Both the position numbers and the translations under genes were made by a program. A stretch of DNA of 64,000 bases from Candidatus Bathyarchaeia archaeon (GTDB lineage: Archaea; Thermoproteota; Bathyarchaeia; Bathyarchaeales; Bathycorpusculaceae): the NCBI GenBank assembly GCA_038883775.1, contig JAVZLM010000008.1, forward strand, positions 32,001 through 96,000. Reading direction: 5' to 3'. Under the pieces are notes generated by a model. That model saw nothing but the letters and a program-made list of their open reading frames with translations, was not told the origin of the DNA and did no database searches. Shown here piece after piece: positions 3,694-43,545 of the stretch (within the stretch, counting starts at the first letter, position 1; each line of letters starts with the position of its first letter).

Positions 3694-4043
3694 TTCACTA
3701 TTCACTCTCAGAATGAATGCTATAACAATTTTGTATATTAGTTTTATGAGCAAGAAAGTGAATAGAAGATTTTTCCATAAGCTATAAGTGTTTAAATCGC
3801 ATTAAAACTTCATGAGGAGAATGGCGGAATCTTATAAAGGGAGAAAGGAGAGAAGGGAGAAAAACAGTCATTCTACCATTCTCCTCATACATCATTCTTC
3901 ATTATGCATACACATGTTGCTTTTAAACTTTTCTTTGAATTTCGGATTTAACCTCAAATAAGTGTACTTCAAAGGTTTATTTCCAACCGCATTTCGGTGG
4001 TTTAGTAAGCTTAATAACGCTTTTTCAATGACGAAAAACATTT

Positions 4044-4894: not shown

Positions 4895-4929
4895 CCCCTC
4901 TTTCTTTATTGAGGCTCCATAAAATCGCT

Positions 4930-5710
4930 AATCGAAAATCTCATCCGTGCAACATATATTAAATCGTAGGATGCGGGCAGAATGTTAATCATACTCTGCA
5001 AGGCGGAAAATTCTTGACGAAAATCAGAGCGCAACTGAGCTAGGCTGTCGATTGTTCTGCTGTGTCATACTCTTGCGGTGGCATAAATCTCGTTGATTTC
5101 GTTGAACAGGGTTAAAATCTTGTGTCTTGTGCACAACGATTTTAAAGACTCTCACCGCCTACTCCCCTTTCGGACACCTAGGTTAAAATTCGTGTGCACT
5201 GAACACAAGATTTTAACGCTGATTTAAAATTGCAACGAGATTTATGAGAACGCTCTCTGCATCGGGTAAATCTGCAATGCCTCTGTGGTTCTGAATTATT
5301 TTAAAATCTCATCAGCTCAACATATTGTAAAATTGAAAAATTGTAGCTCGTATAAGAAAGATCACCCTTTAACACCCTCTTATTTTTCGTCACTCAATAA
5401 GATTATTAAAGGTGAAGCGCAATTTTTCCTAGACGGGCTACAATTTTACAATTTTACATATTCAGGTTCCGCATCGGGTAAATCTGCAATGTTTCTACCT
5501 TTCAACCTTGGTAGGATATAGGGCACGTTAAGACGCACATTTTCACAGACCTATTCTCTCAAGGTAGAAAGGTTGAAACAATGTCTCTCCGTTTCATCAG
5601 TTACAGAATACCTATCAGAGTGAGTCGAGATTTACGCTATACCTATCCTCTAACGTGTGAAGCGAAGAGACATTGCAGCAATTGAACCCGTAACCGTAGT
5701 CCTGCAATGA
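4930..5710. repeat. Non-coding array of long imperfect inverted repeats with interspersed direct repeats
   Basis: Stem-loops at 5082-5246, 5326-5458, 5491-5579 and 5580-5674; 21-bp direct repeat GCATCGGGTAAATCTGCAATG at 5259 and 5471. Confidence 0.8.
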
Positions 5711-6465
5711 CCCTGCGTTTCTGCGCCATAATCAAGGAGCGATTTAGGTTTAGGTTTTATCAAGTTCGCTAATTCTTTAACCGGCTCTAATTGATTTAAC
5801 GGTTTAACCATACCATCATAGTTAGGAGTAATTTTCTCACCTTTATGACTAATTTTCCAACCATTCTCTCCTGCTAAAATTGTTTTAACTTTATCGAAGC
5901 CTCATATCTTACATTCGCCAATGTCAGCGTTTTTAACTTGTTCAGGGTTGGTTATCTCTTGTGGCACGTCGCTTCTAGCGTCAAAAATGTACCATCTTTC
6001 TTTGCCTTTATGATAAACTTTAGCAATGCAATTAAACCGTTTTATTTGCACTTGGACGAAATAGTCACTTTCCCTCTTATGTTTTGTATGTATTGGAAAC
6101 ACCGCATAAGTATGAAAAGGTCTCGCAGACCCAATCTCAAAAGTTAACCCATTGTCAAGTTTAAAGTCCCATGGTCGCCTATCTTTATCTTCTTCCCAGT
6201 AATTAGGTTTTCTTTGATTCCATTGATAATCTTTACCAGGTTTTAACTTCGCCTCTTTAAGAAACTGATTAAACGCTAATTCTGCCGCTACCCCTAACAT
6301 ATTCTCTATGGGTCCTTTATGAGGATAACCCCTTTTATCATATTCTTTAATAGCAATTGACACTTGCTCTTCAAGGAAATTCTTGTCGATGTTTTCGATG
6401 ATAATCTCCCCGTTTAATGGATGAGTTGAGTCTTTCACTCTTGCACGCCATATCTTTTGTATCAT
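5650..6465 (-). pseudogene. Restriction-endonuclease-like (PD-(D/E)XK-like) ORF interrupted by an in-frame TGA at 5902-5904
   Basis: GVAAELAF...WDFKL...FEIGS resembles the E...D...ExK nuclease core. The frame stays open for 83 more codons after the TGA (CKI*GFDKVKTILAG...). Confidence 0.55.
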
Positions 6466-6632
6466 TGTTTAGTCGCCTCTATGATTAACCGTTCTCCATC
6501 AATGCGAATCTTAACAGAGTCACCGTCTTTGAATGGGAACGTCGAATCAATCACTAAATCCGCTGGGACATAAATTATGCCCGTTCTGCCCCGCATTGGC
6601 GTTTTGAACGTGCCGATAGCCTCTTTAACCAT
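6462..6632 (-). CDS. AbrB/MazE/SpoVT-like small DNA-binding protein (56 aa, not in ORF track)
   Basis: MVKEAIGTFKTPMRGRTGIIYVPADLVIDSTFPFKDGDSVKIRIDGERLIIEATKQ; GGTGA RBS upstream; ATGA overlap with the downstream ORF. Confidence 0.75.
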   Translation of the reverse strand: MVKEAIGTFKTPMRGRTGIIYVPADLVIDSTFPFKDGDSVKIRIDGERLIIEATKQ

Positions 6633-6753
6633 TTTACCATCACCATTATACGTAAAGGCATAGCGATATTTAAAGATTACGAATATTTTACCCGATACTT
6701 TATTCGATAACTTTAAATATGGCGATGGCTACATTATAATCGAGGATGATAAA

Positions 6754-7023
6754 ATGTTAAGTAAGGTCGAATTAGATTACCTTAAATCGCCAGACGCATT
6801 TAACCCAGATTATCAGCGAATCTTACGTTATCGTATCCGCCATAAAGTTGAACGCCTCAAAGTTATAATGCCATTGTTGGAGGCTAACGGTTTCAGCGTT
6901 ATAAATAATTGTAACAGCGTTACGGAATCTTATAACGGTCAACGGAGCGTAAATCAGACTCTTTTCGATAAAAGAATGGTGCGGTCGCCGGGATTTGAAC
7001 CCGGGTCGTCAGCGTGGCAGGCT
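6754..7023 (+). CDS. Integrase N-terminal fragment int(N)
   Basis: ORF runs into the att repeat in the same frame as int(C) (both contain VRSPGFEPGSSAWQA); GAGGA RBS upstream. Confidence 0.85.
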
Positions 7024-7054
7024 GATGTCCTAGACCAGGCTAGACTACGACCGC
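6977..7054 (-). tRNA. tRNA-Gly(GCC), CCA encoded
   Basis: GCGGTCG...TCAGC-CTGCCAC-GCTGA...CCGGG-TTCAAAT-CCCGG-CGACCGC-ACCA. Confidence 0.95.
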
Positions 7055-7287
7055 TTTGAGATGATTATAACGTTTTTCTTTATTTCTTTTTCTTAAAAAT
7101 GTAACATTACCAAGCGTAGTACAAGCTTGGTAGAAATCAGCCTTATGTTGACGATTTGAAATTAAAATCCTCTGTTATAGCTAACCAACTCAAGTAAGGA
7201 AGGTTTCATCTATTTTTAACGAAAAAATTAAAAGTGTGACGGATATTTTGCTCTTTCTAAACATCTCATGGAAGTGAAAGCAAACAA

Positions 7288-8544
7288 ATGGGATTAATTG
7301 ACCCTCTACCGGCACTTATTATCGCTTTCTCTTTTCTTGTTGTACTACTGTATAAACGTGTAAATCTTGCAATAACATTAAATTCTACAGCCTTGCTTTT
7401 AGCCTTACTTGCATTGGATTGGCAAAACATTCCCACAGTAATTTTTGAAACTACAAATTATTCAACTGTTGAGGGAATACAAACAATTTTTGTTGTACTT
7501 GCAACTTTTGGTATTACTTTGTTAAGTCAACTCTATAACGAAACAGGAGAAATTAAGCATCTCAGTGAAAGCTTAAGCAAAATTATTAAAAACTCAAAAA
7601 TAATTTCAAGCATGCTTCCAGCAATCATCGGTTTTCTTCCTGTTGCTGGCGGAGCATTAATGTCAGCGCCAATAGTTGATGCTGAAACAGAAAAATTGAG
7701 ACTAACACCGGAGAAGAAAACATATGTAAACTTGTGGTTTAGGCATACAATTTTTCCAGTTTACCCCATTAGTCAGCTGTTAATAACAACTGCCGCACTC
7801 ACTAGTGTACCCATGTTCCTGATAATCTTACATCAGATTCCAGTTGTTACCACCATGATAATTATTGGATACCTCATCGCTTTTTGGAAAGTTTCCAGTT
7901 TGAAGAGCCGAGAAAAAAGTGGAGAAAATGGGTTAAAATCAAACTTGCATGATTTTTTTGTTTCTTTTTCCCCGATTTTGGCAACGATAGTCATAGTTGT
8001 TGTATTAGGCTTAACGGGTTTTAATTTGTCTAAGCAGGGGGTTGACGTTCTTATAGCAACGTTTATTGGAATACTCCTTTTAATTTTTATTTCAAAAACA
8101 AATCTGGAAACTTTGACAAAAACTTTAAAAAATAGAGGAATTTATGGAATCACATTTGCAGTTTATGGAGCTTTTTTACTGAGAAACATTATTAAAGCTG
8201 GAGGAGTATCTGAAGTTTTTAAAACGTTGATTATGAACGGAAACGTTAACACAGTGGTGCTTTTAACCATTATTCCAAGTACCCTAGGGTTCCTCACAGG
8301 TTCCCCTTTGGCAGGAGTCTCAATAAGCGTCTCGATAATGGCAGGAGTCGTACAGTTTTTGCCTAAGGTTGCTTCACTTATTTACATGAGCGCTTATCTT
8401 GGGTATATTATATCTCCTACACATCTATGTTTCACGTTTACAGCAGAGTATTTTAAATGTCCACTTGGAAAAGCCTACAAATATGTGATTCCATCATCTT
8501 TAGCCACGTTTATGGTTACACTGCTAATCTACTTAATATTTTAG
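7288..8544 (+). CDS. DUF401-family / IT-superfamily membrane protein
   Basis: Multi-TM; GFLPVAGGALMSAP, NLWFRH, SPTHLC motifs. Confidence 0.8.
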   Translation: MGLIDPLPALIIAFSFLVVLLYKRVNLAITLNSTALLLALLALDWQNIPTVIFETTNYSTVEGIQTIFVVLATFGITLLSQLYNETGEIKHLSESLSKIIKNSKIISSMLPAIIGFLPVAGGALMSAPIVDAETEKLRLTPEKKTYVNLWFRHTIFPVYPISQLLITTAALTSVPMFLIILHQIPVVTTMIIIGYLIAFWKVSSLKSREKSGENGLKSNLHDFFVSFSPILATIVIVVVLGLTGFNLSKQGVDVLIATFIGILLLIFISKTNLETLTKTLKNRGIYGITFAVYGAFLLRNIIKAGGVSEVFKTLIMNGNVNTVVLLTIIPSTLGFLTGSPLAGVSISVSIMAGVVQFLPKVASLIYMSAYLGYIISPTHLCFTFTAEYFKCPLGKAYKYVIPSSLATFMVTLLIYLIF

Positions 8545-8678
8545 ACAAATTTTCCATTCAACTTTCAAGTTAAAAACTGAAAATCGCAAGTGAACCATTG
8601 CTTCATACAAAACCTTTGGAACAGAAAGATAGATATTTCATAAAAATATAAGAAGCGAACGTTAATAGGTGATGAAGT

Positions 8679-10058
8679 TTGAGTGAAGCTCAATTTGAAA
8701 AACTTGAAAGCATAGTTGTTGACCTGATGCGACAAGCAAAGGTTCCTGGACTGAGTATATCAGTTGTTATTGATGGAAAACCAGCATATGCAAAAGGATT
8801 TGGCGCAAGAAACCTAGAAAAGAATTTACCCATGACTCCAGATACGCTTTGGGGAATAGCTTCAATTTCAAAGTCTTTCTGCGCTATGGCAGTAATGCAG
8901 CTTGTTGAAAATGGAAAAATAGACCTTAACGCTCCGGTGAGAAAATACATTAATTTTAAACTTGGTAAGAAAGGTAAACCTATAACAATTCACCATTTGC
9001 TTTGTCATTCTTCAGGCATACCTGAACTTGATGCCACAACAGCTGCAACGGTTAAAGAAGCGTTTATTCCCATGAGTAGCGAAGAAGACTTTCTGCGTTT
9101 TGTAAATAAGGCAAACACAGAGATTTTTAGTGATCCAGGTGAAATGTTCATGTATAACAATGATATGTACACTTGTCTTGGGCTTGTAGTGCAGAAGGTC
9201 GCAAAGATGAGATATGAAGATTACGTGAAAAAGAACATTTTGAAACCTCTTCAAATGAATAGATCAACATTCATAAAAGAAGAGTTCGAAAAAGACGACA
9301 ATATTATTACAGGCTATGTCCTTTCAAAAGATGGAAAATCCATGGAACTCAAGCCAATCAAGAATGATAGGCTAGATTACGCTTGTGGTGGCTTATACTC
9401 TTCAGTTCGCGAATTACAGAATTACATGATAATGTTAATGAATGGCGGGGAATTTAATGGACATCAACTTTTGGAGAAGTCATCGATTGAGAAAATGTGG
9501 ACGCCATACATAAAACCGCCAGCTGCGTATGCCCATGGTGATGGCGGTTACGGTTATGGATGGAGCATTGAAAAGGAATTCTTTGGCTATAAGCTTGTAC
9601 AACATGGCGGAAATATTCCAACGTCGGGAGGCTTCTTAGCCATGGTTCCAGAGAAAAAATTAGGGATTGCACTTGGACAGATTCCAAATCCTTCGATAAT
9701 TCATGAAGCAATCGTTCGAGGGCTTCTCGCAATACTTCTGGGAGAAGACATGGACAAGGCAGCTCCAATAATTGGGATACAAAAAAAGCTTGAACGTATA
9801 ATTGGGAAATACAAGACTTATGGAATGGTGCAGGGAGAAATTTCAATGGAAGATGGTATTCTCTACTTAACTCTCATTTTCGAAGGAGAAAGTAAACCAG
9901 TGAAACTTCCTCTCCTAATTAAAGACATCGAGAAACTTAAGTTCTCAATTCCAGCCTTGCTGCCTGAACATGAAATGGATGTCCAAATAATTACAGATGA
10001 AAAAACTGGAAAAGTTCACATGCAGATAGATCGATACTATTTTCACAAAATCGCCTAA
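8679..10058 (+). CDS. Serine hydrolase, beta-lactamase class C / peptidase S12 family
   Basis: SxxK (ASISKS), YxN (YNN), HGG, LLCHSSG. Confidence 0.9.
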   Translation: MSEAQFEKLESIVVDLMRQAKVPGLSISVVIDGKPAYAKGFGARNLEKNLPMTPDTLWGIASISKSFCAMAVMQLVENGKIDLNAPVRKYINFKLGKKGKPITIHHLLCHSSGIPELDATTAATVKEAFIPMSSEEDFLRFVNKANTEIFSDPGEMFMYNNDMYTCLGLVVQKVAKMRYEDYVKKNILKPLQMNRSTFIKEEFEKDDNIITGYVLSKDGKSMELKPIKNDRLDYACGGLYSSVRELQNYMIMLMNGGEFNGHQLLEKSSIEKMWTPYIKPPAAYAHGDGGYGYGWSIEKEFFGYKLVQHGGNIPTSGGFLAMVPEKKLGIALGQIPNPSIIHEAIVRGLLAILLGEDMDKAAPIIGIQKKLERIIGKYKTYGMVQGEISMEDGILYLTLIFEGESKPVKLPLLIKDIEKLKFSIPALLPEHEMDVQIITDEKTGKVHMQIDRYYFHKIA

Positions 10059-10160
10059 AACCATCCATCATTCAATAATAATTTAGAGAAAGCCTTGTTA
10101 AAGTAAAATAGCTATAAAAACGTGAATGAAATTTTATTGCCATACTCTTTTTTTACATTG

Positions 10161-11945
10161 TTAATCTGTGATTTTTTCCAATTCCGTTATGAAATGTTGG
10201 TATTGTTTCATGCCTATTTGCCAAAAGTCTCTGCTGCTGATGTTGAAGCCTGCGATTTTGCCTATTTCTATGGGGGATAGGCTGCTTCCAGCCGATAGGA
10301 TTTGTTTCATTTTCGGTATGAAGGCTTTGCCTTCTTGGAGATACTTTTGGTAGAGGGCGTAAACGAATAGTTGTGCGTAAACATATGGGTAGTTGTAGAA
10401 TCGGAAGTTAGCCATATAATAGTGCGGTGTTATGCTCCATTCTGAAAGCATCTCGTTGAACCATTCCACAGTGTCGCCGTAGGCTTTGTTTCGTGCGGCA
10501 ACCCAATATTTGCATATGGTTTCATGGTTTAGGTATTCGCCTCTTTTGATAACATTGTAAATTTGCTGTTCAAACCATGCGCGGGCGGTTACGCTAAAGA
10601 TTACTCTTCCTGCGCCGTCGAGAATTCTGCAGAGAATCGCTTTCTTTTCCATGTCTGTTTTTGCTTCGCTTAGTAGGAGGTCTGTGAGGAGTAGTTCGCC
10701 AAATATGGAGGCGGTTTCTGCCACAACCATGGGAATCCTCGTGTTCAAAATTGTTTGGTTTCGGAAACAATAGTAGTCGTGGGTTGCGTGGCCGAGTTCG
10801 TGGGCTAATGTGTAAACGTCGTTTAGTCTTCCGTTGAAGCTTTGGAGTACGAAGGCTGATTTTCCATTATACCATCCTGCGCAAAAGGCGCCGTGCTGTT
10901 TGCCAAATCTTGGTGTAGCATCAATGTGGTTTCTTGCGAACATGTCTTTAACAGCGAAAGCATATTCTTCGTCGAAATTGCTGTAAGCTTTAATAACTAA
11001 GTCCTTAGCCTTTTCAAAGTCGAATTTCATTTCTGGCGCATCTGGTAAAGGTGCAATGATGTCGTGGCAGCCAAGCTTGGGTAAGCCCATTATTTTTGCC
11101 TTAAGCCTAAGATAATGCTTGTATAAGCCAACATTTTCTTCAACAACTTTAAGCAAATTGTCTATGGTTTGTTGGTCCACGTCATTGGCTATTAGGCTGG
11201 CGTGCATGGGTGAATCGTATTTTCTCCATTCGCAGACGCTTAGCCAATCATTACAGATATTCCTAAAAGCTGAGGAGAAGATTTCTCCGTCTTTCCCGAC
11301 AAGGCTGAAGACTGATTTGTAGGCTGATTCGCGGGTGGCACGGTCTGGATGAGCGAATAAGCCGTAGGCTTGGCCGAATGGAAGTGTTTTCTTTTCGCCT
11401 TCCACCATAACCTCAAACATTCGTGTGTTTAGCCATTTGGCTTGTAGTTCTTCCCATGCGGAAACTCCGAACTGGTCTTTTTCGATTATTAGTTTTTCTT
11501 CTGTTTCTGAAAGTTGGTGTGGAACTTTGCGCTTTAGTCTTTCTAGGGCATGTTTATAATTTGCCAAGAGTGGGTCTGAGATTAATTCTGGTTTTTCGTA
11601 GACTAGTTTTCCAACTTCAAGCTCGAAGAAGGCTAATAGTTTGCCAAGTTTTGCTTCTAACTTCATGGCCTTGTCATGGAGCGCTTGGGTTTCTGGTAAT
11701 GTCATGTTGGCAGCAAACGCAAGTTCGCAGAATAGCGTGATTTCTCTAAGTTTTGCTTGATACGCTTCAAACTCTTGTAGGCATAGGAGCAGTTCTTTGG
11801 CTGTGAAATCCTTAATTTTTCCTCGGTATTTGTTTGCGAATTTTTCAGCCATATCCGTTAATTCGCTCATGGCTTTCTGCACTGAAGGGTCTGTAATGCT
11901 TGGAAAAATTTCGGACAAGTTCCAAACAACTTCACTTTTCATCAT
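10161..11945 (-). CDS. pepF: Oligoendopeptidase F (M3B)
   Basis: TLAHELGHA zinc motif; AETASIFGE; HYY...FYNYPY. Confidence 0.9.
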   Translation of the reverse strand: MMKSEVVWNLSEIFPSITDPSVQKAMSELTDMAEKFANKYRGKIKDFTAKELLLCLQEFEAYQAKLREITLFCELAFAANMTLPETQALHDKAMKLEAKLGKLLAFFELEVGKLVYEKPELISDPLLANYKHALERLKRKVPHQLSETEEKLIIEKDQFGVSAWEELQAKWLNTRMFEVMVEGEKKTLPFGQAYGLFAHPDRATRESAYKSVFSLVGKDGEIFSSAFRNICNDWLSVCEWRKYDSPMHASLIANDVDQQTIDNLLKVVEENVGLYKHYLRLKAKIMGLPKLGCHDIIAPLPDAPEMKFDFEKAKDLVIKAYSNFDEEYAFAVKDMFARNHIDATPRFGKQHGAFCAGWYNGKSAFVLQSFNGRLNDVYTLAHELGHATHDYYCFRNQTILNTRIPMVVAETASIFGELLLTDLLLSEAKTDMEKKAILCRILDGAGRVIFSVTARAWFEQQIYNVIKRGEYLNHETICKYWVAARNKAYGDTVEWFNEMLSEWSITPHYYMANFRFYNYPYVYAQLFVYALYQKYLQEGKAFIPKMKQILSAGSSLSPIEIGKIAGFNISSRDFWQIGMKQYQHFITELEKITD

Positions 11946-32467: not shown

Positions 32468-32697
32468 TGCACATCAAGTACAATGTAGAGAATGTTGTTT
32501 CCCCGCAACAAAACATTCCCATAATTCGTGATTAACTGGTCTTCTCTGCACTCCGTCGCTCCTTCCAAAAGAATATTCATGTGACCATCACATTTAATCA
32601 TCTTCCCCTTGTACTCGCATCCGTTTTTTAGCACTACGGCAATATTGGCATTTAACTGTTTAACAAGCACATTCAAAGGCTTCTTACTTGGCTCCAT
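32464..32697 (-). CDS. Sm/LSm-family RNA-binding protein
   Basis: Sm1 VVLKNG.EYKG...DGHMNILL; Sm2 LLRGNNILYI. Confidence 0.92.
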   Translation of the reverse strand: MEPSKKPLNVLVKQLNANIAVVLKNGCEYKGKMIKCDGHMNILLEGATECREDQLITNYGNVLLRGNNILYIVLDVH

Positions 32698-32749
32698 GAC
32701 AGCACCAGATGATTATTTACCTTAATACTCATATCCAAAACCACCAAAT

Positions 32750-32762
32750 ATAAAAGTTTTAT
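32750..32762. repeat. Left target-site duplication ATAAAAGTTTTAT
   Basis: Identical 13-mer at 38236-38248; both copies abut the terminal repeats. Confidence 0.8.
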
Positions 32763-32783
32763 CCCCAAACCCAAACCCAAACT
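32763..32783 (+). repeat. Left terminal inverted repeat C(CCCAAA)3CT
   Basis: CCCCAAACCCAAACCCAAACT read directly. Confidence 0.9.
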
Positions 32784-32845
32784 TTAAAAATTGAGACCGA
32801 AGAACCGTGCAGAAGTAGACCAAAAGCACTCAGAGAAAGCGCATA

Positions 32846-33190
32846 ATGTTTATATTACCCTCCCCGAGACATCGATTTATGGGCAACTTTAACGTTTTAT
32901 ATCTTAATCAGATTATTTGTATTGCAATTGCGTTGAATGAACATGGAATTTTGTTGAACCTTGATGATATGCAAATGGGTAGATTAAGTCCGAAACTTTT
33001 GGGGGACATAAACATCGTTCCAATATCTCGGATATATCCTATTCAATTAACTTTGGAAGTGAAAGAAAAAATGAAATCCATTGGTATTGTTGATTTTTGG
33101 GATTATTTATTTTACCAAGAAACAAAAATTAGACAAGAGAAGAAAGACAAAATTGGACGAAGGTCCAGGAAAAGACTTTGGATATTTTAA
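32846..33190 (+). CDS. Hypothetical protein (element)
   Basis: 114-aa ORF just inside the left TIR; no motif recognised. Confidence 0.4.
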   Translation: MFILPSPRHRFMGNFNVLYLNQIICIAIALNEHGILLNLDDMQMGRLSPKLLGDINIVPISRIYPIQLTLEVKEKMKSIGIVDFWDYLFYQETKIRQEKKDKIGRRSRKRLWIF

Positions 33191-33301
33191 ACGTAAACGT
33201 AAACATTGAAACCTTTTAGCATGAACGTTTTATTATGGATATTTTCCATAGAAAAGCATGGAAAAGGTATGGAAAAGAAACGTTCCTTTTTAATGTTTAG
33301 G

Positions 33302-33805
33302 TTAAAGTTCAGAACATTTTAAAATAGGTTCAGTTTTAAGTTTAGGTTTTTGTTCAAGTCTTCTAATAATGCCCTTGACGATTTTTCTGTAAGCCAAAAA
33401 CTCAGCAATTTGGTTCTCTTGAGAGCCATATCTAAACACAATGCGTGGCTCAGGCTTATCCTTCTTCGCAGAAACTCTGAGAGTGCTTCCTTCTTTAATT
33501 GCTTGCATAGTAAACCATTTCTGAAGATTTTTGTTCTGGGAGAGTAGGCTAACCCAAGCCATGATTTTAACGTTCTTTTCCCATGAAACCTTTTTGTCAA
33601 AAACGACATGATAACTGTTTTTTGAGCTTTTGAGAATAATGAACCCTTTTAATTTGAACCATCGCATTGTTCTCATCGCCCAATATTTGACGGTTCTAAA
33701 CTTGGTTTTATCAAAGTCAAGTTTAACCGTATTTTTGTCGGTTATTCCCATGATGAAAGGCAAATTGTTGTTTTCAGCTTTCGATTTCTTTTTCAATCCA
33801 TTCAC
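33302..33805 (-). CDS. Small archaeo-eukaryotic primase (AEP)-like protein
   Basis: Motif I hhhDhD (VKLDFD), motif II (KSSKNSYHVVF), downstream TLRV. No clear motif III Asp. Confidence 0.6.
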   Translation of the reverse strand: MNGLKKKSKAENNNLPFIMGITDKNTVKLDFDKTKFRTVKYWAMRTMRWFKLKGFIILKSSKNSYHVVFDKKVSWEKNVKIMAWVSLLSQNKNLQKWFTMQAIKEGSTLRVSAKKDKPEPRIVFRYGSQENQIAEFLAYRKIVKGIIRRLEQKPKLKTEPILKCSEL

Positions 33806-34085
33806 CTTCTAAGCCATATTTTTCTGGATTTTCTAAGAAGCTTTTAGCCGAAACATGAACAAACCCTTTTGGCATGAATTGATGCGCCTTAATCACGGCT
33901 TTGTAAAGCTCTTTTCCTTTACCATGAAACTCATATCTTCCACTTTGCTCAATTGTTTTGGTTCTCTTAGTCTTTTTCCAATACCTTTGACGTATTCCGT
34001 CTTTGCGTGTTTTCCAATATCTTTGACGCACATAAACCTTAGCTTCATAAGAACCGTAAACAGCTATCTTTTTCGTTTCAGCCAT
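33774..34085 (-). CDS. Basic hypothetical protein with duplicated RQRYWK
   Basis: VRQRYWKTRKDGIRQRYWKK; AGGTGA RBS before MAETKK. Confidence 0.65.
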   Translation of the reverse strand: MAETKKIAVYGSYEAKVYVRQRYWKTRKDGIRQRYWKKTKRTKTIEQSGRYEFHGKGKELYKAVIKAHQFMPKGFVHVSAKSFLENPEKYGLEGEWIEKEIES

Positions 34086-34109
34086 TAACATCACCTTTAT
34101 CTCTTAATC

Positions 34110-34592
34110 TTAAGGTAAAATCGCATTTTTTCTCGAAGATTTAGCCTTCTTTTTGTGCCATAAACCGTATTTATGTCTAATTTTCAAAATTGCTATAAAC
34201 AATTTGTCTAAAACTTCAATTGAAAGCTCTTGTGCTATCCATTTTTCCGTTTGCGGATTACTTACTGTAACAAATTTCGTAGCTGGGCATTTTTTATCGT
34301 GGAAAACCGTAATAAGCCATTTTTCAACCCAGAATTCAAACTCTCTCTCCAAATTTGGGTTTTTATCAAGACGCTTAAACGTAGCATCCTTAATCGTTCC
34401 AATCTTAACAGGCAAACCACTCTTAGTTTTCCCTTTAATATGCAAATCCTTAAACTCAATTGGAAAAGGTTGCGGAATCCAAGGCTCTGGAATCTTACTC
34501 TTAAGAGTAAAATACGTTAATATCCATTGTTTCTGCTCATCTTCACTCATACTTTTCCAATCCTTAGGAAAAACAACATCTTCAAAAGCCAC
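34110..34592 (-). CDS. Hypothetical protein (element)
   Basis: GTG start (MAFEDVVF) after AGGTG; operonic with neighbours. Confidence 0.6.
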   Translation of the reverse strand: MAFEDVVFPKDWKSMSEDEQKQWILTYFTLKSKIPEPWIPQPFPIEFKDLHIKGKTKSGLPVKIGTIKDATFKRLDKNPNLEREFEFWVEKWLITVFHDKKCPATKFVTVSNPQTEKWIAQELSIEVLDKLFIAILKIRHKYGLWHKKKAKSSRKNAILP

Positions 34593-34980
34593 ACTTACCC
34601 ACCTTTCCCATTCTCTCAAGAAGCCAAGCTTCAACACCACTAAGGAAATCAGAAAAAGAGAGATATTGAACCCATTGATAGCGAACTTTCAGTTTTTGCT
34701 TTAGCTTTTTTGTTGGAATATCACCTTCAAGCCACTCATTAACCCAAAACTGCCTTTCAGCATTAGGCATAGGCTCTAAAACCAAATAACGACGCTTTCG
34801 ATAGTCAAGCTCAATGGCTAAAACATGGTTGTCTCTCATATATCGCTTAAGCAAAGGCTTAATCTGTTCAACTGCATACCTTAACGTTTCTCGCTTATGT
34901 TTTGAAGTAGGCTTTACCTTATCAAAAGCTTCTTTTGTCAAACGTAAAGCTTTTAACTGACCTTCAACATTTATACTCAT
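34582..34980 (-). CDS. Hypothetical protein (element)
   Basis: ATG start MSINV; operonic. Confidence 0.6.
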   Translation of the reverse strand: MSINVEGQLKALRLTKEAFDKVKPTSKHKRETLRYAVEQIKPLLKRYMRDNHVLAIELDYRKRRYLVLEPMPNAERQFWVNEWLEGDIPTKKLKQKLKVRYQWVQYLSFSDFLSGVEAWLLERMGKVGKCGF

Positions 34981-35030
34981 ATCTAACCACATCCTTTTTC
35001 TTTTGTAAACTTTGAAAGTCAGTGAAGACG

Positions 35031-35549
35031 TTAGTCTTCTTCTGTTTCTTCGCTTTCTTCAGTTGAAAACCAAGCGTATTGTTCTTCTGAAGGTTCTAAA
35101 GGCTCAAATTTCTCTGCAAACTCTTCAAGCGAAGGCTTAATGAAATAGCCTTCATACCCTATTTGCAGTTTTTCTTTGACTTTTCTCCATTGTTCAGGCG
35201 TTAAGTCCTTAAGCTTCCATCCCTTTTCGCTAAACTTAGCAATGAAACCGTCTTCGCCATCTATCTCAAAACCACCATAGTAAGTTGTGCATTCATTGAG
35301 TAATGCATCAAGTTCTTTATCTGGAATAACAGCCTCTGGATTAGGTTCAGCGGGTTTTTCTATCTCTTCAAAGTATTTTCTGAGAGCCTCACGCACTATT
35401 GAGCCTCTGCTTACGTCTCTTTCGTAGGCTAAATCCTTCAGTTTTTTGAGCCATTTTTCTGGAAGCATTATTTGAACACGCACTAAAGACTCATCGCTAT
35501 CCAAGTCGGGAACTTTTTTCATTTCCAAATCTTCAATTTTTTCGGACAT
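35031..35549 (-). CDS. Ribbon-helix-helix (CopG-like) regulator with acidic C-terminal domain
   Basis: VRVQIMLPEKWLKKLKDLA...VSRGSIVREALRKY; GAGG RBS. Confidence 0.8.
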   Translation of the reverse strand: MSEKIEDLEMKKVPDLDSDESLVRVQIMLPEKWLKKLKDLAYERDVSRGSIVREALRKYFEEIEKPAEPNPEAVIPDKELDALLNECTTYYGGFEIDGEDGFIAKFSEKGWKLKDLTPEQWRKVKEKLQIGYEGYFIKPSLEEFAEKFEPLEPSEEQYAWFSTEESEETEED

Positions 35550-35601
35550 ACTTATCTACCTCATAAATTACCTAATTACCGAAAGATTAATAAACCCTAC
35601 C

Positions 35602-35615
35602 GTAACTATAGTTAC
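35602..35615. promoter_or_regulatory. Perfect palindrome between divergent regulators (putative operator)
   Basis: GTAACTATAGTTAC, with outer CCCTA...TAGGG arms. Confidence 0.55.
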
Positions 35616-35629
35616 CTTAGGGATACGTA

Positions 35630-36166
35630 ATGAAAGAAAGAATGGGAGAAAAATCGGTTCAAATAGGCAAAAGAAACAAAGCCAAAATTATAGCTGAACT
35701 AATCAAAAATCCAATGACATTCACGGAATTGAAAGAAACCTTAGACTTCTCAGCAAAAACTCTGATGTTTCATTTAAGAGATTTGGAAAATGAAGGTTTA
35801 ATACGACGAATTTTAGAAGGAAAATCCATTCTTTATGATGTCATAAAACCGAAAAGCGTCATTGAGCTTAGAAAACAATTCCTTTCAGAACTTCTAAACT
35901 TAAAAGCCTACGATGTAGCTTTAAACGAAAAGACAAAAGCATTATACTATCAATTTTTGAAAACTCTCAAAGAAAGCATTGAAAAGCCAGAACCAGAAGC
36001 AAAAACCACAAAAATCATAGCTAAAACCATTGAAATTCCAAAAGGATTCAAAGGAACAATAAAACAAAAGATAACCAATATGTATGAAAAACCAGAGCTA
36101 AAAGAAACCGAAACCGAACAGTTGAAACCTTATTCCATGAAAAGAAAAAAGAAGGTGAGAACATGA
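35630..36166 (+). CDS. Winged HTH (ArsR-like) regulator
   Basis: PMTFTELKETLDFSAKTLMFHLRDLENEGLIRR; ATGA overlap with cas1. Confidence 0.82.
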   Translation: MKERMGEKSVQIGKRNKAKIIAELIKNPMTFTELKETLDFSAKTLMFHLRDLENEGLIRRILEGKSILYDVIKPKSVIELRKQFLSELLNLKAYDVALNEKTKALYYQFLKTLKESIEKPEPEAKTTKIIAKTIEIPKGFKGTIKQKITNMYEKPELKETETEQLKPYSMKRKKKVRT

Positions 36167-37248
36167 GAGCAAAGCTTCAGAGAATCGTTATAGATAATTG
36201 TGGCTCGTATTTAGGAATGCAGAAAGGCTGTTTTGTTGTTAAGGATAGAGAAGGTAATGTTCAAAGGTTTCCAATGTTTGAGAATGAAATCGGCGAAATT
36301 GTCTTGACAGGTGGGAACTTTGTTAGCACAAGTGTTTTAGCGTCTTGTGGTTTCTGGGATATTCCAATAACTATTATGACAAAGAACTTTAAGCCTATTG
36401 CTGTTCTTAAAAGCTTAGATGATGATAGCCATGTTAAGACACGCATTGCTCAATATGAAGCGTTAAAGAATGGAAAAGGCATAACCATAGCCAAAACCAT
36501 TGTAGAGTCAAAAATTGAAAGCCAAAACATAATCCTCAAAAGATATTCACTCAAACAACTTGACATTATGACTTTGAAAGCCAAAATTGAAAAGTTAGAA
36601 TCCAATAACCTTAAAGACTTGAGAAAAAGGCTCTTACCGATAGAAGGCAAAGCTTCAGAACACTATTTCCATGAAATCTTTAAGCTGTTTCCAAAAGCCA
36701 TTAGAACAGAACAAAGAAAAACTTGGAAGGCTTATGATAGTTTAAACAACACTTTCAACTTAGCCTATACGCTTTTGAAGTTTAGAGTTCACTCTGCAAT
36801 TTTGAAGGCTCACTTAGAACCTTACTTAGGGTTCATGCATTCAGAACAACATGGTAAGCCTTCTTTGGTTTGCGATTTTTGTGAGCTTTACCGCTACATA
36901 ATAGACTCATTCCTAATTGACTTCTCGCAAAATCTAAAACCCAAAGATTTCATTGTTAAAACTGAATGGTATTCCACGAATCGTTTAGGCAAAAGGCAAG
37001 TTTTGAACCGTGAAAAGACTAAGGAATTAACTGAAAATCTTAATCGGTTCTTTGAGACAAAAGTGCCAATAAGCAGAATAAGATACGGTTTTAAACAGCA
37101 AATTGAAACATTGATTAATGAAGAGGCTTTGCTTTTTGCGAAGTATCTTCGAGACGAAAGGGAACAATGGATTCCACGCATCATTCAACTAAACCCTTTT
37201 TTCCATCCACGTTTTATGCGTATGAGAAAAAACTTTTTATCTTTTTAA
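36163..37248 (+). CDS. cas1: Solo Cas1 endonuclease/integrase (putative casposase)
   Basis: N-terminal GSYLG beta domain; RIAQY; catalytic E (IEGKAS), NxxxNxxY, H (YLGFMH), D/E (LVCDFCELYR). Confidence 0.93.
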   Translation: MRAKLQRIVIDNCGSYLGMQKGCFVVKDREGNVQRFPMFENEIGEIVLTGGNFVSTSVLASCGFWDIPITIMTKNFKPIAVLKSLDDDSHVKTRIAQYEALKNGKGITIAKTIVESKIESQNIILKRYSLKQLDIMTLKAKIEKLESNNLKDLRKRLLPIEGKASEHYFHEIFKLFPKAIRTEQRKTWKAYDSLNNTFNLAYTLLKFRVHSAILKAHLEPYLGFMHSEQHGKPSLVCDFCELYRYIIDSFLIDFSQNLKPKDFIVKTEWYSTNRLGKRQVLNREKTKELTENLNRFFETKVPISRIRYGFKQQIETLINEEALLFAKYLRDEREQWIPRIIQLNPFFHPRFMRMRKNFLSF

Positions 37249-37276
37249 TCGAAAGGATACTGTGAAGAGATGAGTA

Positions 37277-38185
37277 TTGGTGGTAAATAAACTGGCAATC
37301 GCAGGAAGCATTGTTGCTTTTATTAGTTTGCTTTTCCCGTGGTGGTCTCTCGAAGCTAGTATTGTTGGAGTGTCCCCAGTAACTTTCCACGTATATCCTG
37401 GATGGTTCAGTGGTAATCTAAATGATGTGGTTAATGTTTTTCGTAAACTTGACATAACTCTCGGCGTAAATTTTTTCGAAGAGTGCGTAGGTGCATTAGC
37501 AACGTTTGGTATACTATTTTGTTCAGGGATTCTCTTTGCATTGATTGGAGCTTTTATCAGAAGTAACATGGGAAGGGGAATTATTGCACTCGGGTTTTTC
37601 TTAATCTTATGTGGTATTTATGGTTTTTGTTACACATGGAACAAACTATTTTACCTATTACAAACTCCTATTTCATTTTCACATTCTGAATTGTCACCAT
37701 TATTTTCTGTTACGTGGGGTTGGTCATATGGTCTCTATATCGCCATCTTTGCTTTCCTTTTATTGTTGGTGAGTGTTGCATTTCATCCAGTAGAAGTTAA
37801 AGCAAAAGAAGAAGTAGAAATTGAAAAAAAGCCTTCAGAGCAAAAACATATATTCAATAGGACCAAAAAAAGGACCTATTTAGAGTCGATAATGGAAGCA
37901 CGAGCAAGGGAGATGGGTCCACCTCCTCCTCCACCTCCTCCTCTCCTATGTAGATTAAGGCTTCATCGGTGGAGGTATTATGGTCAAGATGTTGTGGTTA
38001 CTGTTCGAGAATACGTAAAGGTTGGAGACGCACGTATACCAGTTAATGAAGGAGTGAAGCTCATTAATAATAAAAGAAAATGTGCACGATGTGGTATAAA
38101 ACAAGAGGCAAACATTTTTACTAACGAAGATGGAACACTCTCTATGAGAGGATGGAGAGAGTCGAATAATTCGCAAGGTGATTAG
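37277..38185 (+). CDS. Membrane protein (4 TM) with poly-Pro linker and a C-terminal C-x4-H...CxxC module (cargo)
   Basis: LLFPWW...WGWSYGLY TM domain; PPPPPPPPLLCRLRLHRW...KCARCG. Confidence 0.7.
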   Translation: MVVNKLAIAGSIVAFISLLFPWWSLEASIVGVSPVTFHVYPGWFSGNLNDVVNVFRKLDITLGVNFFEECVGALATFGILFCSGILFALIGAFIRSNMGRGIIALGFFLILCGIYGFCYTWNKLFYLLQTPISFSHSELSPLFSVTWGWSYGLYIAIFAFLLLLVSVAFHPVEVKAKEEVEIEKKPSEQKHIFNRTKKRTYLESIMEARAREMGPPPPPPPPLLCRLRLHRWRYYGQDVVVTVREYVKVGDARIPVNEGVKLINNKRKCARCGIKQEANIFTNEDGTLSMRGWRESNNSQGD

Positions 38186-38208
38186 TCAGTCTTGCACACC
38201 CCCTCGTT

Positions 38209-38235
38209 AGTTTGGGTTTGGGTTTGGGTTTGGGA
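38209..38235 (-). repeat. Right terminal inverted repeat AG(TTTGGG)4A
   Basis: Reverse complement of the left end with one extra hexamer. Confidence 0.9.
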
Positions 38236-38248
38236 ATAAAAGTTTTAT
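38236..38248. repeat. Right target-site duplication ATAAAAGTTTTAT
   Basis: Identical to 32750-32762. Confidence 0.8.
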
Positions 38249-38423
38249 GAAAAACTATTCCGAAAAATAAAGCAAATTAATTCGTCTTTCCAAATTCTAA
38301 AGCTTTTTCCAAAATAAATCGCTTTTTCGCAAAGACTTATTTAGAAAACTCAAATTTAAAGGAGAAAATGTTCCCAAAGAATTAAAACGAGAAAGTTTCC
38401 TATTGCATAATGGAGGATAAAAC

Positions 38424-39947
38424 ATGCATGAAGTGCACGTTGACGGAGAAACCTTAACCATCGAAGACGTTGTAAAAGTTGCAAGAGAAAACGCAAAAGT
38501 CGTAATATTAGAAAAAGTAAAAGAGAAAGTGAAGAGAAGCCGAGAAGTTTTGGAAAAACTCGTCAAAGAAGGACAAATAATTTACGGCGTAAACACCGGC
38601 TTCGGCGCTTTAAGCAACAAAATCATCACGCCCGAAGAAAACAGAAAACTGCAAACAAACCTCATCAGAAGCCACTCCACATGCGTTGGAAAAAACTTAA
38701 GCACAGAAATTGTCCGCGCCTTAATGCTTTTACGAGCGAATACGCTTGCTAAAGGATATTCTGGCATACGCTTAGAAACACTTGAAACCATAGTAGAAAT
38801 GCTAAACAAGCGGGTACACCCAATAATCCCAGCAAAAGGCTCTGTTGGAGCAAGCGGCGACCTAGCCCCACTATCACACATGAGCTTGGTGCTTATAGGT
38901 GAAGGAAAAGCCGAATACAAAGGCAAAACGATGAATGGAAAAGAGGCAATGGAAAAAGCCAACATAAAACCCATCCAACTAGAATTTAAAGAGGGCATAG
39001 CCCTAAACAACGGCACCCAACTAATGACAGCCATAGCTGCACTAACGGTTTATGACGCTGAAAACCTAATTAAAACAGCGGAAACTGCAGCAGCTTTAAG
39101 TCTCGAAGCATTGAATGGCGTTTCCGACGCCTTCCACGAAAAAATCCACAAAGTAAGACCACACAATGGACAAGCAATAACGGCAAAAAACATAAGAGAA
39201 ATGATTATCGGAAGCCAACTCGTCCAAACTGGAAAAGAAGCCTTTGAAAGGTTGAAGCATCCCCACGACCCCTACAGCCTAAGATGCATACCACAAATTT
39301 TGGGCGCCGCAAGAGATGCCACCGCCTACGCAAGAAGGGTTGTGGAAATTGAAATCAACTCCGCCACAGACAATCCACTAATTTTTCCAGAAGAAGAACT
39401 CTGCCTTTCAGGAGGAAACTTCCACGGGCAACCCATATCGCTTGCCATGGACATTCTCGGAATAGCCCTAACCATAATCGGCAACCTCTCAGAAAGAAGA
39501 ACAGCAAGACTCCTCGACGAAAAACTCAACAATGGCTTACCAGCCTTCTTAATCCCACCAGAGGCAAAAACAGGATTAAACAGTGGCTTAATGACCCTAC
39601 AATATACAGCAGCCGCCCTAGCCTCAGAAAACAAGGTTTTAGCGCATCCAGCATGCGTAGACTCAATTCCAACATCAGCAAACTTCGAAGACTTCGTAAG
39701 CATGGGAACAACAGCAGCCCAAAAAGCCATGCAAATCCTAGAAAACACAGAGTATATAATAGCCATAGAACTTCTCTGCGCAGTCCAAGCAATAGACCTC
39801 CGAGGACCAGAAAAACTCGGAAAAGAAACCAAAAAAGCCTATTCAGCCATCAGAAAGATGGTGCCTATGCTTAAAGAAGATAGGGTATTAAGCGAAGACA
39901 TAGAAAAAATTAAACGTGCTATGTATAATCTTTTAAGGCTTGAATAA
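38424..39947 (+). CDS. hutH: Histidine ammonia-lyase
   Basis: YGVNTGFG, LIRSH, MIO triad GASGDL, DPYSLRC, GGNFHG. Confidence 0.93.
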   Translation: MHEVHVDGETLTIEDVVKVARENAKVVILEKVKEKVKRSREVLEKLVKEGQIIYGVNTGFGALSNKIITPEENRKLQTNLIRSHSTCVGKNLSTEIVRALMLLRANTLAKGYSGIRLETLETIVEMLNKRVHPIIPAKGSVGASGDLAPLSHMSLVLIGEGKAEYKGKTMNGKEAMEKANIKPIQLEFKEGIALNNGTQLMTAIAALTVYDAENLIKTAETAAALSLEALNGVSDAFHEKIHKVRPHNGQAITAKNIREMIIGSQLVQTGKEAFERLKHPHDPYSLRCIPQILGAARDATAYARRVVEIEINSATDNPLIFPEEELCLSGGNFHGQPISLAMDILGIALTIIGNLSERRTARLLDEKLNNGLPAFLIPPEAKTGLNSGLMTLQYTAAALASENKVLAHPACVDSIPTSANFEDFVSMGTTAAQKAMQILENTEYIIAIELLCAVQAIDLRGPEKLGKETKKAYSAIRKMVPMLKEDRVLSEDIEKIKRAMYNLLRLE

Positions 39948-43448: not shown

Positions 43449-43545
43449 TGGCGGGCCCGACGGGAATTGAACCCGTGACCCCCGGGTTTCTCTGCGTTTT
43501 TTGGCTTAAAAGCCCGGTGCTCTATCCTTACTGAGCTACGGGCCC
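43449..43545 (-). tRNA. tRNA-Lys(TTT) with 19-nt intron, CCA encoded
   Basis: GGGCCCG...CCGGG-CTTTTA[AGCCAAAAAACGCAGAGAA]A-CCCGG...TTCAATT...CGGGCCC-GCCA; BHB motif fits. Confidence 0.92.

Follow-up and report, generated by a model that had tools for sequence, protein, structure and literature searches.

What kind of mobile DNA ends on both sides in telomere-like repeats? The question is raised by an element at positions 32763-38235 of a 64,000-nt stretch of DNA (the window, in which positions are counted from the first letter) from a Candidatus Bathyarchaeia archaeon, assembly GCA_038883775.1 (1,693,884 bp, 28 contigs, 91%-complete). The element encodes a homologue of the CRISPR integrase Cas1 and is bounded by (TTTGGG)n tracts. 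A preliminary description of this DNA took the tracts for labile ends with the polarity of telomeres, on which Cas1 acts, and suggested that they might be extended or trimmed, possibly in a free linear form. The evidence presented here favours, with a probability of about 0.8, a compact casposon-like transposon that lacks a family-B DNA polymerase (PolB) and whose terminal inverted repeats are the (TTTGGG)n tracts.

Ends of the element and its insertion site

The left terminus (32763-32783) reads C(CCCAAA)3CT and the right terminus (38209-38235) reads AG(TTTGGG)4A in the window sequence. On the minus strand, read toward the tip, the left end is AG(TTTGGG)2TTTGGGG-3'. A repeat scan found a perfect inverted repeat of 20 nt between the two ends (CCCAAACCCAAACCCAAACT / AGTTTGGGTTTGGGTTTGGG). 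Similarity ends after CT/AG, and the inverted repeat consists of the hexamer tract plus 2 nt. The end sequences first reported, with three against four copies and no similarity further inside, were thus confirmed at both positions. With up to 2 mismatches allowed, (TTTGGG)3 matched the window three times, once at the left end and twice, in overlap, at the right end, against a chance expectation of 0.00 (100 shuffles of the window). Within the whole 1.69-Mb assembly, tracts of at least 3 TTTGGG units occur only at the two ends of the element, so that the hexamer tract is not a motif common throughout the genome. A single unrelated 2-copy site lies on contig C2, and a looser pattern, (T2-4 G3-4) repeated three or more times, yields one more match, which marks the right end of a second, related element on contig C28.

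Just outside the tracts stands a direct repeat of 13 bp without mismatch, ATAAAAGTTTTAT (32750-32762 and 38236-38248), from which the limits of the element were set at 32763-38235. The extra A at 38235 is part of neither the duplication nor the inverted repeat; it differs both from the left tip and from the T preceding the 13-mer in empty sites. The element is flanked on the left by an Sm-like (LSM) gene on the minus strand and on the right by an aromatic-amino-acid/histidine ammonia-lyase gene on the plus strand. The left flank was searched against 48 other genomes of the same family, and both flanks were aligned to the 11 best loci. In seven of these (L130, L131, L133, L134, L138, L139 and L140) the flanks adjoin without the 5.5-kb insert, and in four of the seven (L130, L131, L133 and L139) the two flank alignments overlap by exactly 13 nt. 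The empty sites read ...ATATAAAAGTTTTATGAAA..., with the 13-mer present once in eight of the nine related genera compared; the empty-site 13-mer of L132 shows one difference. The 13-mer is nearly palindromic and far better conserved than the surrounding intergenic DNA (~72-77% identical). It resembles two back-to-back TATA boxes and, judged by this resemblance, is possibly a bidirectional TATA-type promoter element. Segment 32763-38235 is therefore a real insertion with a 13-bp target-site duplication, as expected of a casposon in the broad sense, and the duplication together with the empty sites bears out the proposal that the tracts form the real ends of a mobile element that encodes Cas1.

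Three metagenome contigs (run X2) run from the left flank into a CCCAAA tract and then, from 32782, into a different interior, a hint that in some relative this site is taken by a different family member. One contig of run X1 joins 32706 to 38443, with 38 letters on its shorter side; it is not a precise empty site and we drew no inference from it. Targeting of tRNA genes was considered and rejected: no tRNA gene abuts an element in the 14 loci scanned, and the tRNAs of the window lie far from the element. At 43449-43545 of the window, ARAGORN calls a tRNA-like gene of 97 nt to which it assigns just two anticodon bases (tt); the gene may be an intron-containing archaeal tRNA.

A family of elements with the same kind of ends

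At E <= 1e-20 the protein collection contains 1,787 relatives of the window Cas1, the weaker of which may include ordinary CRISPR Cas1s, and a search with this Cas1 also found three named-genome loci. A 14-sequence Cas1 profile confirmed at least 580 relatives among the 599 metagenome stretches listed, of which the best 80 were analysed. The profile also matches 23 of 301 genomes of the host class at E <= 1e-60. The closest named relatives are metagenome-assembled genomes labelled Bathyarchaeia and one labelled Aenigmatarchaeota; in viral contigs scanned with the profile, none of 39 pattern matches was confirmed. A second member resides in the same assembly, where contig C28 (the feature occupies its last ~330 nt) starts inside the C-terminal part of a Cas1 very like that of the window and continues through (TTTTGGG)3G into TTAAAAATTTTAT. 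This element, with a 7-nt unit, is broken at the shared cas1 sequence.

Twenty-two complete elements of 2.0-7.3 kb, including the window copy, could be delimited by their tracts and an AT-rich duplication of 12-14 bp. A further three elements (L023, L062 of 11.4 kb, and L081) end in tracts of two units. Locus L049 duplicates L047, loci L086-L114 repeat larger regions and were not counted a second time, and L012 was left out of the set. In L012 (13,453 nt) the inversion of the two ends is perfect over at least 150 nt on the inner side of the tracts and 22 nt on the outer side, and the tracts lie symmetrically about the contig midpoint; this contig may be a palindromic assembly chimera. In locus L002 the element at 4917-10194 begins with (CCCAAA)5, ends with (TTTGGG)6 and is flanked by the duplication ATTTAATTTTTAT. 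Across the family the duplications are 12-14 bp long, AT-rich and near-palindromic, and cluster around ATTAAAATTTAAT or ATAAAANTTTTAT. Their asymmetric positions identify them as direct duplications rather than as parts of the inverted repeats. A comparison of homologous elements, proposed earlier as a check, has thus revealed the same kind of end instead of unrelated ones: the terminal inverted repeat of the window element has counterparts in the 21 other complete elements.

The gene content of these elements was compared by all-against-all BLAST of the open reading frames (ORFs) of 19 of them. Only two clusters are universal, Cas1 (19/19) and a small protein that we call ORF-A (19/19). ORF-B is found just upstream of ORF-A in most elements, and the smallest element, L011 (~2.0 kb), has ORF-A and Cas1 as its only genes. 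The family is abundant and pairs Cas1 with a primase-like protein. Non-Cas1 ORFs in the 19 elements reach at most 541 aa, several of the largest without a Pfam match, and no polymerase was matched by 10 large non-Cas1 ORFs scanned or by two ORFs of L002. Likewise, no PolB domain was detected with Pfam and NCBIfam in the ORFs of the window element; the two DNA_pol_B genes of the genome lie on other contigs, C1 and C5. The element therefore acts like a casposon but, having no PolB, falls outside the original definition of casposons as self-synthesizing transposons. Cargo recognized by Pfam comprises an N6-DNA methylase of type I-like character together with its specificity subunit (L047:4421-6974), a B12-binding radical-SAM enzyme (L064:4404-5912) and DUF4238.

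Polarity, copy number and unit of the terminal tracts

Relative to Cas1, the C-rich tract lies on the left and the G-rich tract on the right in all 22 elements. The G-rich strand therefore ends 3' at both tips, and the outward polarity noted for the window holds throughout the duplication-delimited set. Copy number was counted as G3 runs and could be scored in 21 elements; L011 was not scored because its left tract, which has three perfect units, is interrupted by a CCCCAAT unit. Tracts hold 2-6 units. The two ends of an element have equal copy numbers in 9 of 21 cases and unequal ones in 12, with no favoured side.

Behind the tract, 8 of the 22 elements carry an ordinary inverted repeat of 46-115 nt. 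The hexamer-only repeat of the window is therefore one extreme of a range, and the view that the ends are something other than fixed terminal inverted repeats loses ground. In three elements near-identical subterminal repeats adjoin unequal tracts. The repeats are 73 nt long and 100% identical in L047, 91 nt and 98.9% identical in L083, and 63 nt and 100% identical in L084, and the respective copy numbers are 4 versus 3, 3 versus 5, and 4 versus 3. Copy number must therefore change faster than substitutions accumulate. Together with the 12 unequal pairs, these three elements support the notion of labile ends that undergo slippage or trimming.

The repeat unit itself varies between elements. 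Besides TTTGGG we found TTGGG (L047), TTGG (L054, L068 and L116), TTTGG (L071) and TTTTGG(G) (L010, L014, L019, L031, L032 and contig C28). Unit labels were mapped onto a Cas1 tree built from 35 elements whose right end could be scored. They require four changes, the possible minimum, a value that none of 200 shuffles attained; the TTGG elements all group together in the tree (support 100/99). Moreover, 14 head-to-tail junctions, 12 of them distinct, lead from the G-end of one element across an AT-rich spacer of 9-13 nt into the C-start of its neighbour. Adjacent elements in these arrays often differ in unit, and the genome studied here carries both TTTGGG and TTTTGGG elements. A unit that tracks the Cas1 tree and differs between neighbours appears to be inherited with the element rather than supplied by the host. 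Since kin share labels, the tree points to inheritance and is no proof of co-evolution. Unlike units side by side, and two units in one genome, make a host enzyme with a fixed template unlikely. Addition of repeats from an external template, as had been envisaged, is thereby weakened, and the pattern favours elements that copy their own repeats. Telomeres maintained by a reverse transcriptase have one unit per host, which is not what we observe, and no reverse transcriptase (RVT_1) was found in the 91%-complete genome.

Cas1 and its genomic context

The window Cas1 matches TIGR00287 with 172.5 bits (cut-off 71.7). The Pfam match spans residues 9-282 and the TIGR00287 match residues 8-333 of 361, leaving no extra domain. 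Residues E161, H226, D238 and E241, which we take to be the Glu/His/Asp active site of Cas1, are invariant in 14 relatives, and the enzyme presumably retains the intact catalytic residues expected of a casposon integrase. It is the sole full Cas1 in the assembly. No other cas domain was detected in nine ORFs of the element or four flanking genes, and the repeat scan of 32500-38500 showed no tandem-repeat array; this Cas1 thus lies outside a CRISPR-cas locus. The one Cas2 of the assembly is on contig C17 (214-432), 214 nt from the contig start, where a CRISPR-cas locus may have been cut, its own Cas1 perhaps remaining unassembled.

ORF-A, the second core protein

Residues D30, D32, S60, S61 and Y65 of ORF-A are invariant and H66 nearly so, in an arrangement resembling motifs I and II of archaeo-eukaryotic primases (AEP); the third invariant acidic residue is not evident in the alignment. 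The match to the AEP-like Pfam family PF24387 (E 3.6e-5, 24 bits) falls under the 27-bit cut-off. This family is matched by 8 of the 19 ORF-A members and by 6 of 47 wider relatives (best E 3.5e-7). An AF2 model of ORF-A (pLDDT 82) was compared with known folds using VIA-align. LigD polymerase, AsfvPrimPol, RepB', PriS and CRISPR-associated Prim-Pol (CAPP) matched at Z 5-7.7, a range in which unrelated ferredoxin-like folds also score and which, as Z <8, the tool rates as common. Foldseek returned no match for the model at E <= 0.001, sequence-profile searches of the PDB gave chance-level rows only and no PDB relative, and PHROGs held nothing for the window ORF-A. In an Atlas search, unnamed clusters were joined by a 'primase 1D' cluster at rank 26 (score 0.93). 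An ORF-A profile run against 1.84 billion representatives gave 550 relatives at E <= 0.001 and no functional clue; among the 150 best listed, all are under 250 aa except two (416 and 303 aa). Taken together, the motifs and the model indicate that ORF-A is probably AEP-like. Such a protein could serve in gap filling or as the primase that starts replication of an excised copy.

A model for insertion and its alternatives

We propose that the G-rich 3' ends are bound by Cas1, possibly assisted by the winged-helix or basic proteins encoded next to it. Through Cas1, the 3'-OH of both ends would attack opposite strands of the AT-rich, near-palindromic target 13 bp apart, and gap repair would yield the 13-bp duplication. 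That the 3'-G ends are the strand-transfer substrate of Cas1, as suggested earlier, would follow soundly from casposase and Cas1 chemistry by analogy. Tandem-repeat ends make every unit equivalent, so that copy number could drift between 2 and 6, independently at each end, through slippage during replication or through cleavage or joining in a variable register. Duplication of the target would leave one copy for each flanking gene and recreate the target, which would explain the head-to-tail arrays.

Several observations weigh against this model. The tips are blurred, the last G run being 2-5 long, and between tract and duplication the window element has an extra A, L021 an extra TG, and L126 an extra AAAA on the left and TT on the right. 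The role given to Cas1, rather than to ORF-A or a host enzyme, is suggested by co-occurrence and by analogy, and slippage by the pattern of copy numbers. In phmmer comparisons the window Cas1 obtains a higher score with the CRISPR Cas1 4n06 (76.2 bits, E 2.3e-20) than with the casposase 6opm (58.3 bits, E 6.3e-15). In L065 the flanking 11-mers (105-142 and 3700-3740) are inverted, not direct, which could reflect recombination or inversion between array neighbours. Finally, among 24 metagenome loci with at least 3 kb past cas1, 10 show a tract of at least 3 units within 3 kb; L047 and L049 have theirs at 3,001 nt downstream of cas1. A relaxed search of the remaining 12 found right ends in five, only a left-end or neighbouring tract in three (L032, L040 and L052) and nothing convincing in four (L034, L060, L080 and L082).

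The alternative that survives best is that the hexamers are iterated sites for the winged-helix protein, the ribbon-helix-helix (RHH) protein or ORF-B, and that Cas1 reads only the last few nucleotides. It would suit a window Cas1 free of extra domains, and in at least 9 of the 19 elements the gene immediately preceding cas1 is of the helix-turn-helix (HTH) type, these genes falling into two clusters. In other casposases, about five terminal nucleotides are critical according to the accessible text of PMC9939771. The minimal element L011, however, has tracts with only ORF-A and Cas1, and the HTH, RHH and ORF-B proteins are therefore dispensable in cis. We regard this alternative as possible but improbable; it overlaps our casposon-like model rather than competing with it.

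A second alternative treats the tracts as working telomere-like ends. The element would be excised as free linear DNA, ORF-A would prime on an internal repeat and slip back to the tip, and the copy differences would record extension and trimming. The uniform outward 3' polarity, the labile copy number and the variable register and length of the last G run are all compatible with this scheme, as is the presence of the AEP-like gene near one end in every element compared. In addition, casposases prefer single-stranded substrates, a preference tied to element-encoded synthesis in the accessible text of PMC9939771. What argues against it is, in the first place, the state of the DNA. All 22 elements are integrated, with flanking DNA, and one of 80 metagenome contigs (L033) stops inside a tract, although contigs are uninformative on free ends; no free end was seen in these contigs, and the free linear form first suggested thus finds no support. 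The length of many metagenome contigs is close to that of one element. In L022 and the others examined, the short flanks consist of the duplication and the tip of a neighbour, and such contigs are therefore broken arrays rather than free molecules. Seven public hot-springs metagenome runs, available as Logan contigs, matched the element, and contigs of four (X1, X4, X2 and X5) were aligned to it. Run X1, in which 0.89 of the sampled words were present and which is possibly the source sample, has contigs that span both junctions with 0 differences and the copy numbers of the window, although contigs cannot show minor variants. Nor does the range of copy numbers, bounded at 2-6 units, agree with the open-ended extension expected of telomeres. 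ORF-A is only weakly AEP-like by the measures given above, and the genome yielded no reverse transcriptase. We therefore consider this alternative unlikely.

A bolder extension of the same idea deserves mention as a long shot. These would be the first prokaryotic transposons with working telomere-like ends, in which Cas1 would excise a linear copy and ORF-A would replicate it, starting on an internal CCCAAA/TTTGGG unit and slipping back, so that the tips are renewed with neither terminal protein nor telomerase, while the tract serves as origin, end protection and Cas1 substrate at once. They would also be a living model of the step from casposon to CRISPR array, given a Cas1 at least as close to CRISPR Cas1 as to the solved casposase and arrays with a 13-bp palindromic repeat.

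The least probable alternative is that the tracts matter through G-quadruplexes (G4) that mark the ends, pair them, or block nucleases or replication. The right end, with four GGG tracts and TTT loops, is a canonical G4 motif, and ViennaRNA with G4 terms predicts a three-layer G4 at -12.6 kcal/mol on its 3' strand; to that extent the earlier suggestion of a G4 at the right end stands. G runs are also the conserved part of TTGG, TTGGG, TTTGGG and TTTTGGG. Yet ViennaRNA predicts no G4 for the three tracts of the left end, the TTGG lineage has only G2 runs, 2-unit ends exist, and four or more G3 tracts occur in just 16 of the 44 ends of the 22 elements, so that an intramolecular G4 is not a conserved property, although a G4 formed between the two ends is possible.

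Other genes and features of the window element

Coordinates are collected in Table 1. ORF-B has BLAST relatives in 10 other elements and, with divergent forms included, could be aligned in 16 other elements in total. Relatives of ORF 34582-34992 occur in L012 and L015, and those of the RHH protein in L005, L012 and L015. The stop of the winged-helix gene overlaps the start of cas1; relatives lie directly upstream of Cas1 in L012, L015 and L036, and a second, unrelated cluster takes this position in five other elements.

The translation of the 302-aa ORF appears to have a hydrophobic N-terminus, a proline run and a Cys-containing tail. L002 lacks the ORF at the corresponding place, 26 nt separating the end of Cas1 from the right tract. 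The window Cas1 has 361 aa against 343-350 aa in close relatives, and its last ~15 residues (37206-37248 region) have no counterpart. From this comparison, the 302-aa ORF may have been inserted later, displacing the 3' end that cas1 originally had. The interval from the 114-aa ORF to ORF-A (33182-33317) holds a 30-nt imperfect inverted repeat (77%) that includes AAACGTAAACGTAAAC and could be an iteron-like or origin-like feature.

Table 1. Features of the window element and of its target-site duplications, in window coordinates.
Feature	Position	Strand	Evidence or remark
Target-site duplication, left copy, ATAAAAGTTTTAT	32750..32762	.	exact repeat of 38236-38248
Left terminal inverted repeat, C(CCCAAA)3CT	32763..32783	-	20 nt, 100% complementary to right end
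114-aa ORF	32846..33190	+	no Pfam/NCBIfam match; not conserved across elements compared
ORF-A, 167 aa, second core gene, AEP-like (small, primase-like)	33302..33805	-	homologues in 19/19 elements
ORF-B, 106 aa, basic, just upstream of ORF-A	33774..34094	-	no Pfam family
Two overlapping ORFs (34110-34640, 34582-34992)	34110..34992	-	no family match
Ribbon-helix-helix protein (CopG-like), 172 aa	35031..35549	-	Pfam RHH_1, E 1.6e-5, 25.1 bits (cut-off 20.5)
Winged-helix (ArsR-like) DNA-binding protein, 178 aa	35630..36166	+	Pfam HTH_5, E 1.9e-7
Cas1 integrase, 361 aa, presumed transposase	36163..37248	+	Pfam Cas_Cas1, E 4.2e-51
302-aa cargo ORF	37277..38185	+	no family match
Right terminal inverted repeat, AG(TTTGGG)4 plus one A	38209..38235	+	sequence, pattern and repeat scans
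Target-site duplication, right copy, ATAAAAGTTTTAT	38236..38248	.	direct repeat; empty-site comparison

Comparison with known systems

In the accepted model, CRISPR adaptation originated from casposons. They measure ~8-20 kb; to our knowledge few have been studied, all with PolB. The elements described here are smaller (2-7.3 kb, one of 11.4 kb), have a ~150-aa AEP-like protein instead of PolB as second core gene, and end in a G-rich microsatellite. Their Cas1, judged by that of the window, gives a better score with a CRISPR Cas1 structure than with the solved casposase. As in the casposon families 1-4 of Krupovic et al. (2014), no Cas2 gene or CRISPR array was seen among the ORFs of the element or the flanking genes. 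According to the accessible text of PMC9939771, PolB is conserved in all identified casposons, and casposases join the 3' ends of the inverted repeats to the target with 14-15-bp duplications, often in tandem. Families 1-4 further share with the present elements a Cas1 homologue as the only integrase-like gene, terminal inverted repeats with a target duplication of similar size (13 bp here), and site-preferring insertion that recreates the target and so gives tandem copies. Their target is the 3' end of a tRNA or EF-2 gene, whereas here it is an AT-rich palindrome in promoters.

These elements indicate that Cas1-based transposition does not need PolB, and that a family can target a palindromic, promoter-like 13-mer and build arrays of inserts at it. 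Insertion into a duplicated TATA-like palindrome suggests how they spare the adjacent genes. Since the ends are simple and easily synthesized, the rules of end recognition by Cas1 and the effect of repeat number can be tested directly in vitro. If the ends also act in replication, they would constitute an unexpected prokaryotic parallel to telomeres.

The nearest published relatives may be the 'family 5 casposases' of hot springs, six sequences with mostly hypothetical neighbours (Salgado et al. 2022, PMC9755687, accessible text). Their described features are compatible with the present family: hot-spring origin, a Cas1 near subtype I-A without a C-terminal HTH, the absence of a DNA polymerase from most members and the presence of inverted repeats in some contigs. 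The accessible text of PMC9755687 gives no repeat sequence, telomere-like tract, duplication or target, empty site or AEP-like core gene; compared by description, family 5 may be the same clade. Our literature search, which lay outside subscription papers and supplements, found nothing on casposons with TTTGGG/CCCAAA or telomere-like ends, and nothing relevant on casposons or Cas1 transposons in Bathyarchaeia/Bathyarchaeota. Within the literature searched, the recurring combination of telomere-like ends with Cas1 and without PolB thus appears to be undescribed.

Inverted repeats that end in a short G/C-rich telomere-like repeat are known from ciliate telomere-bearing transposons. The TBE1/Tec elements of Oxytricha and Euplotes are of the Tc1/mariner type, encode a DDE transposase, generate a 2-3-bp duplication and carry the telomere unit of their host. 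Here, in contrast, the enzyme is Cas1 and the unit is specific to the element, in a host for which we know of no telomeres. Protein-primed linear genomes (phi29, PRD1, adenovirus) restore their ends by sliding-back or jumping-back with a terminal protein and a protein-primed PolB. The short repeats at the 3' ends described here would similarly let an internal primer slip to the tip; by comparison, terminal protein and protein-primed PolB are absent, and the elements are known only as integrated copies.

Finally, CRISPR spacer acquisition by Cas1-Cas2 differs in that its inserts are 30-40-bp spacers rather than whole 2-7-kb elements with defined ends, whereas the repeat here is 13 bp long and Cas2 is not encoded in the element. 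Both systems employ an enzyme of the Cas1 family and, if the mechanism proposed here holds, 3'-OH attack at both borders of a partly palindromic repeat that is thereby duplicated, and in both the repeated use of one site leads to an array of inserts separated by direct repeats.

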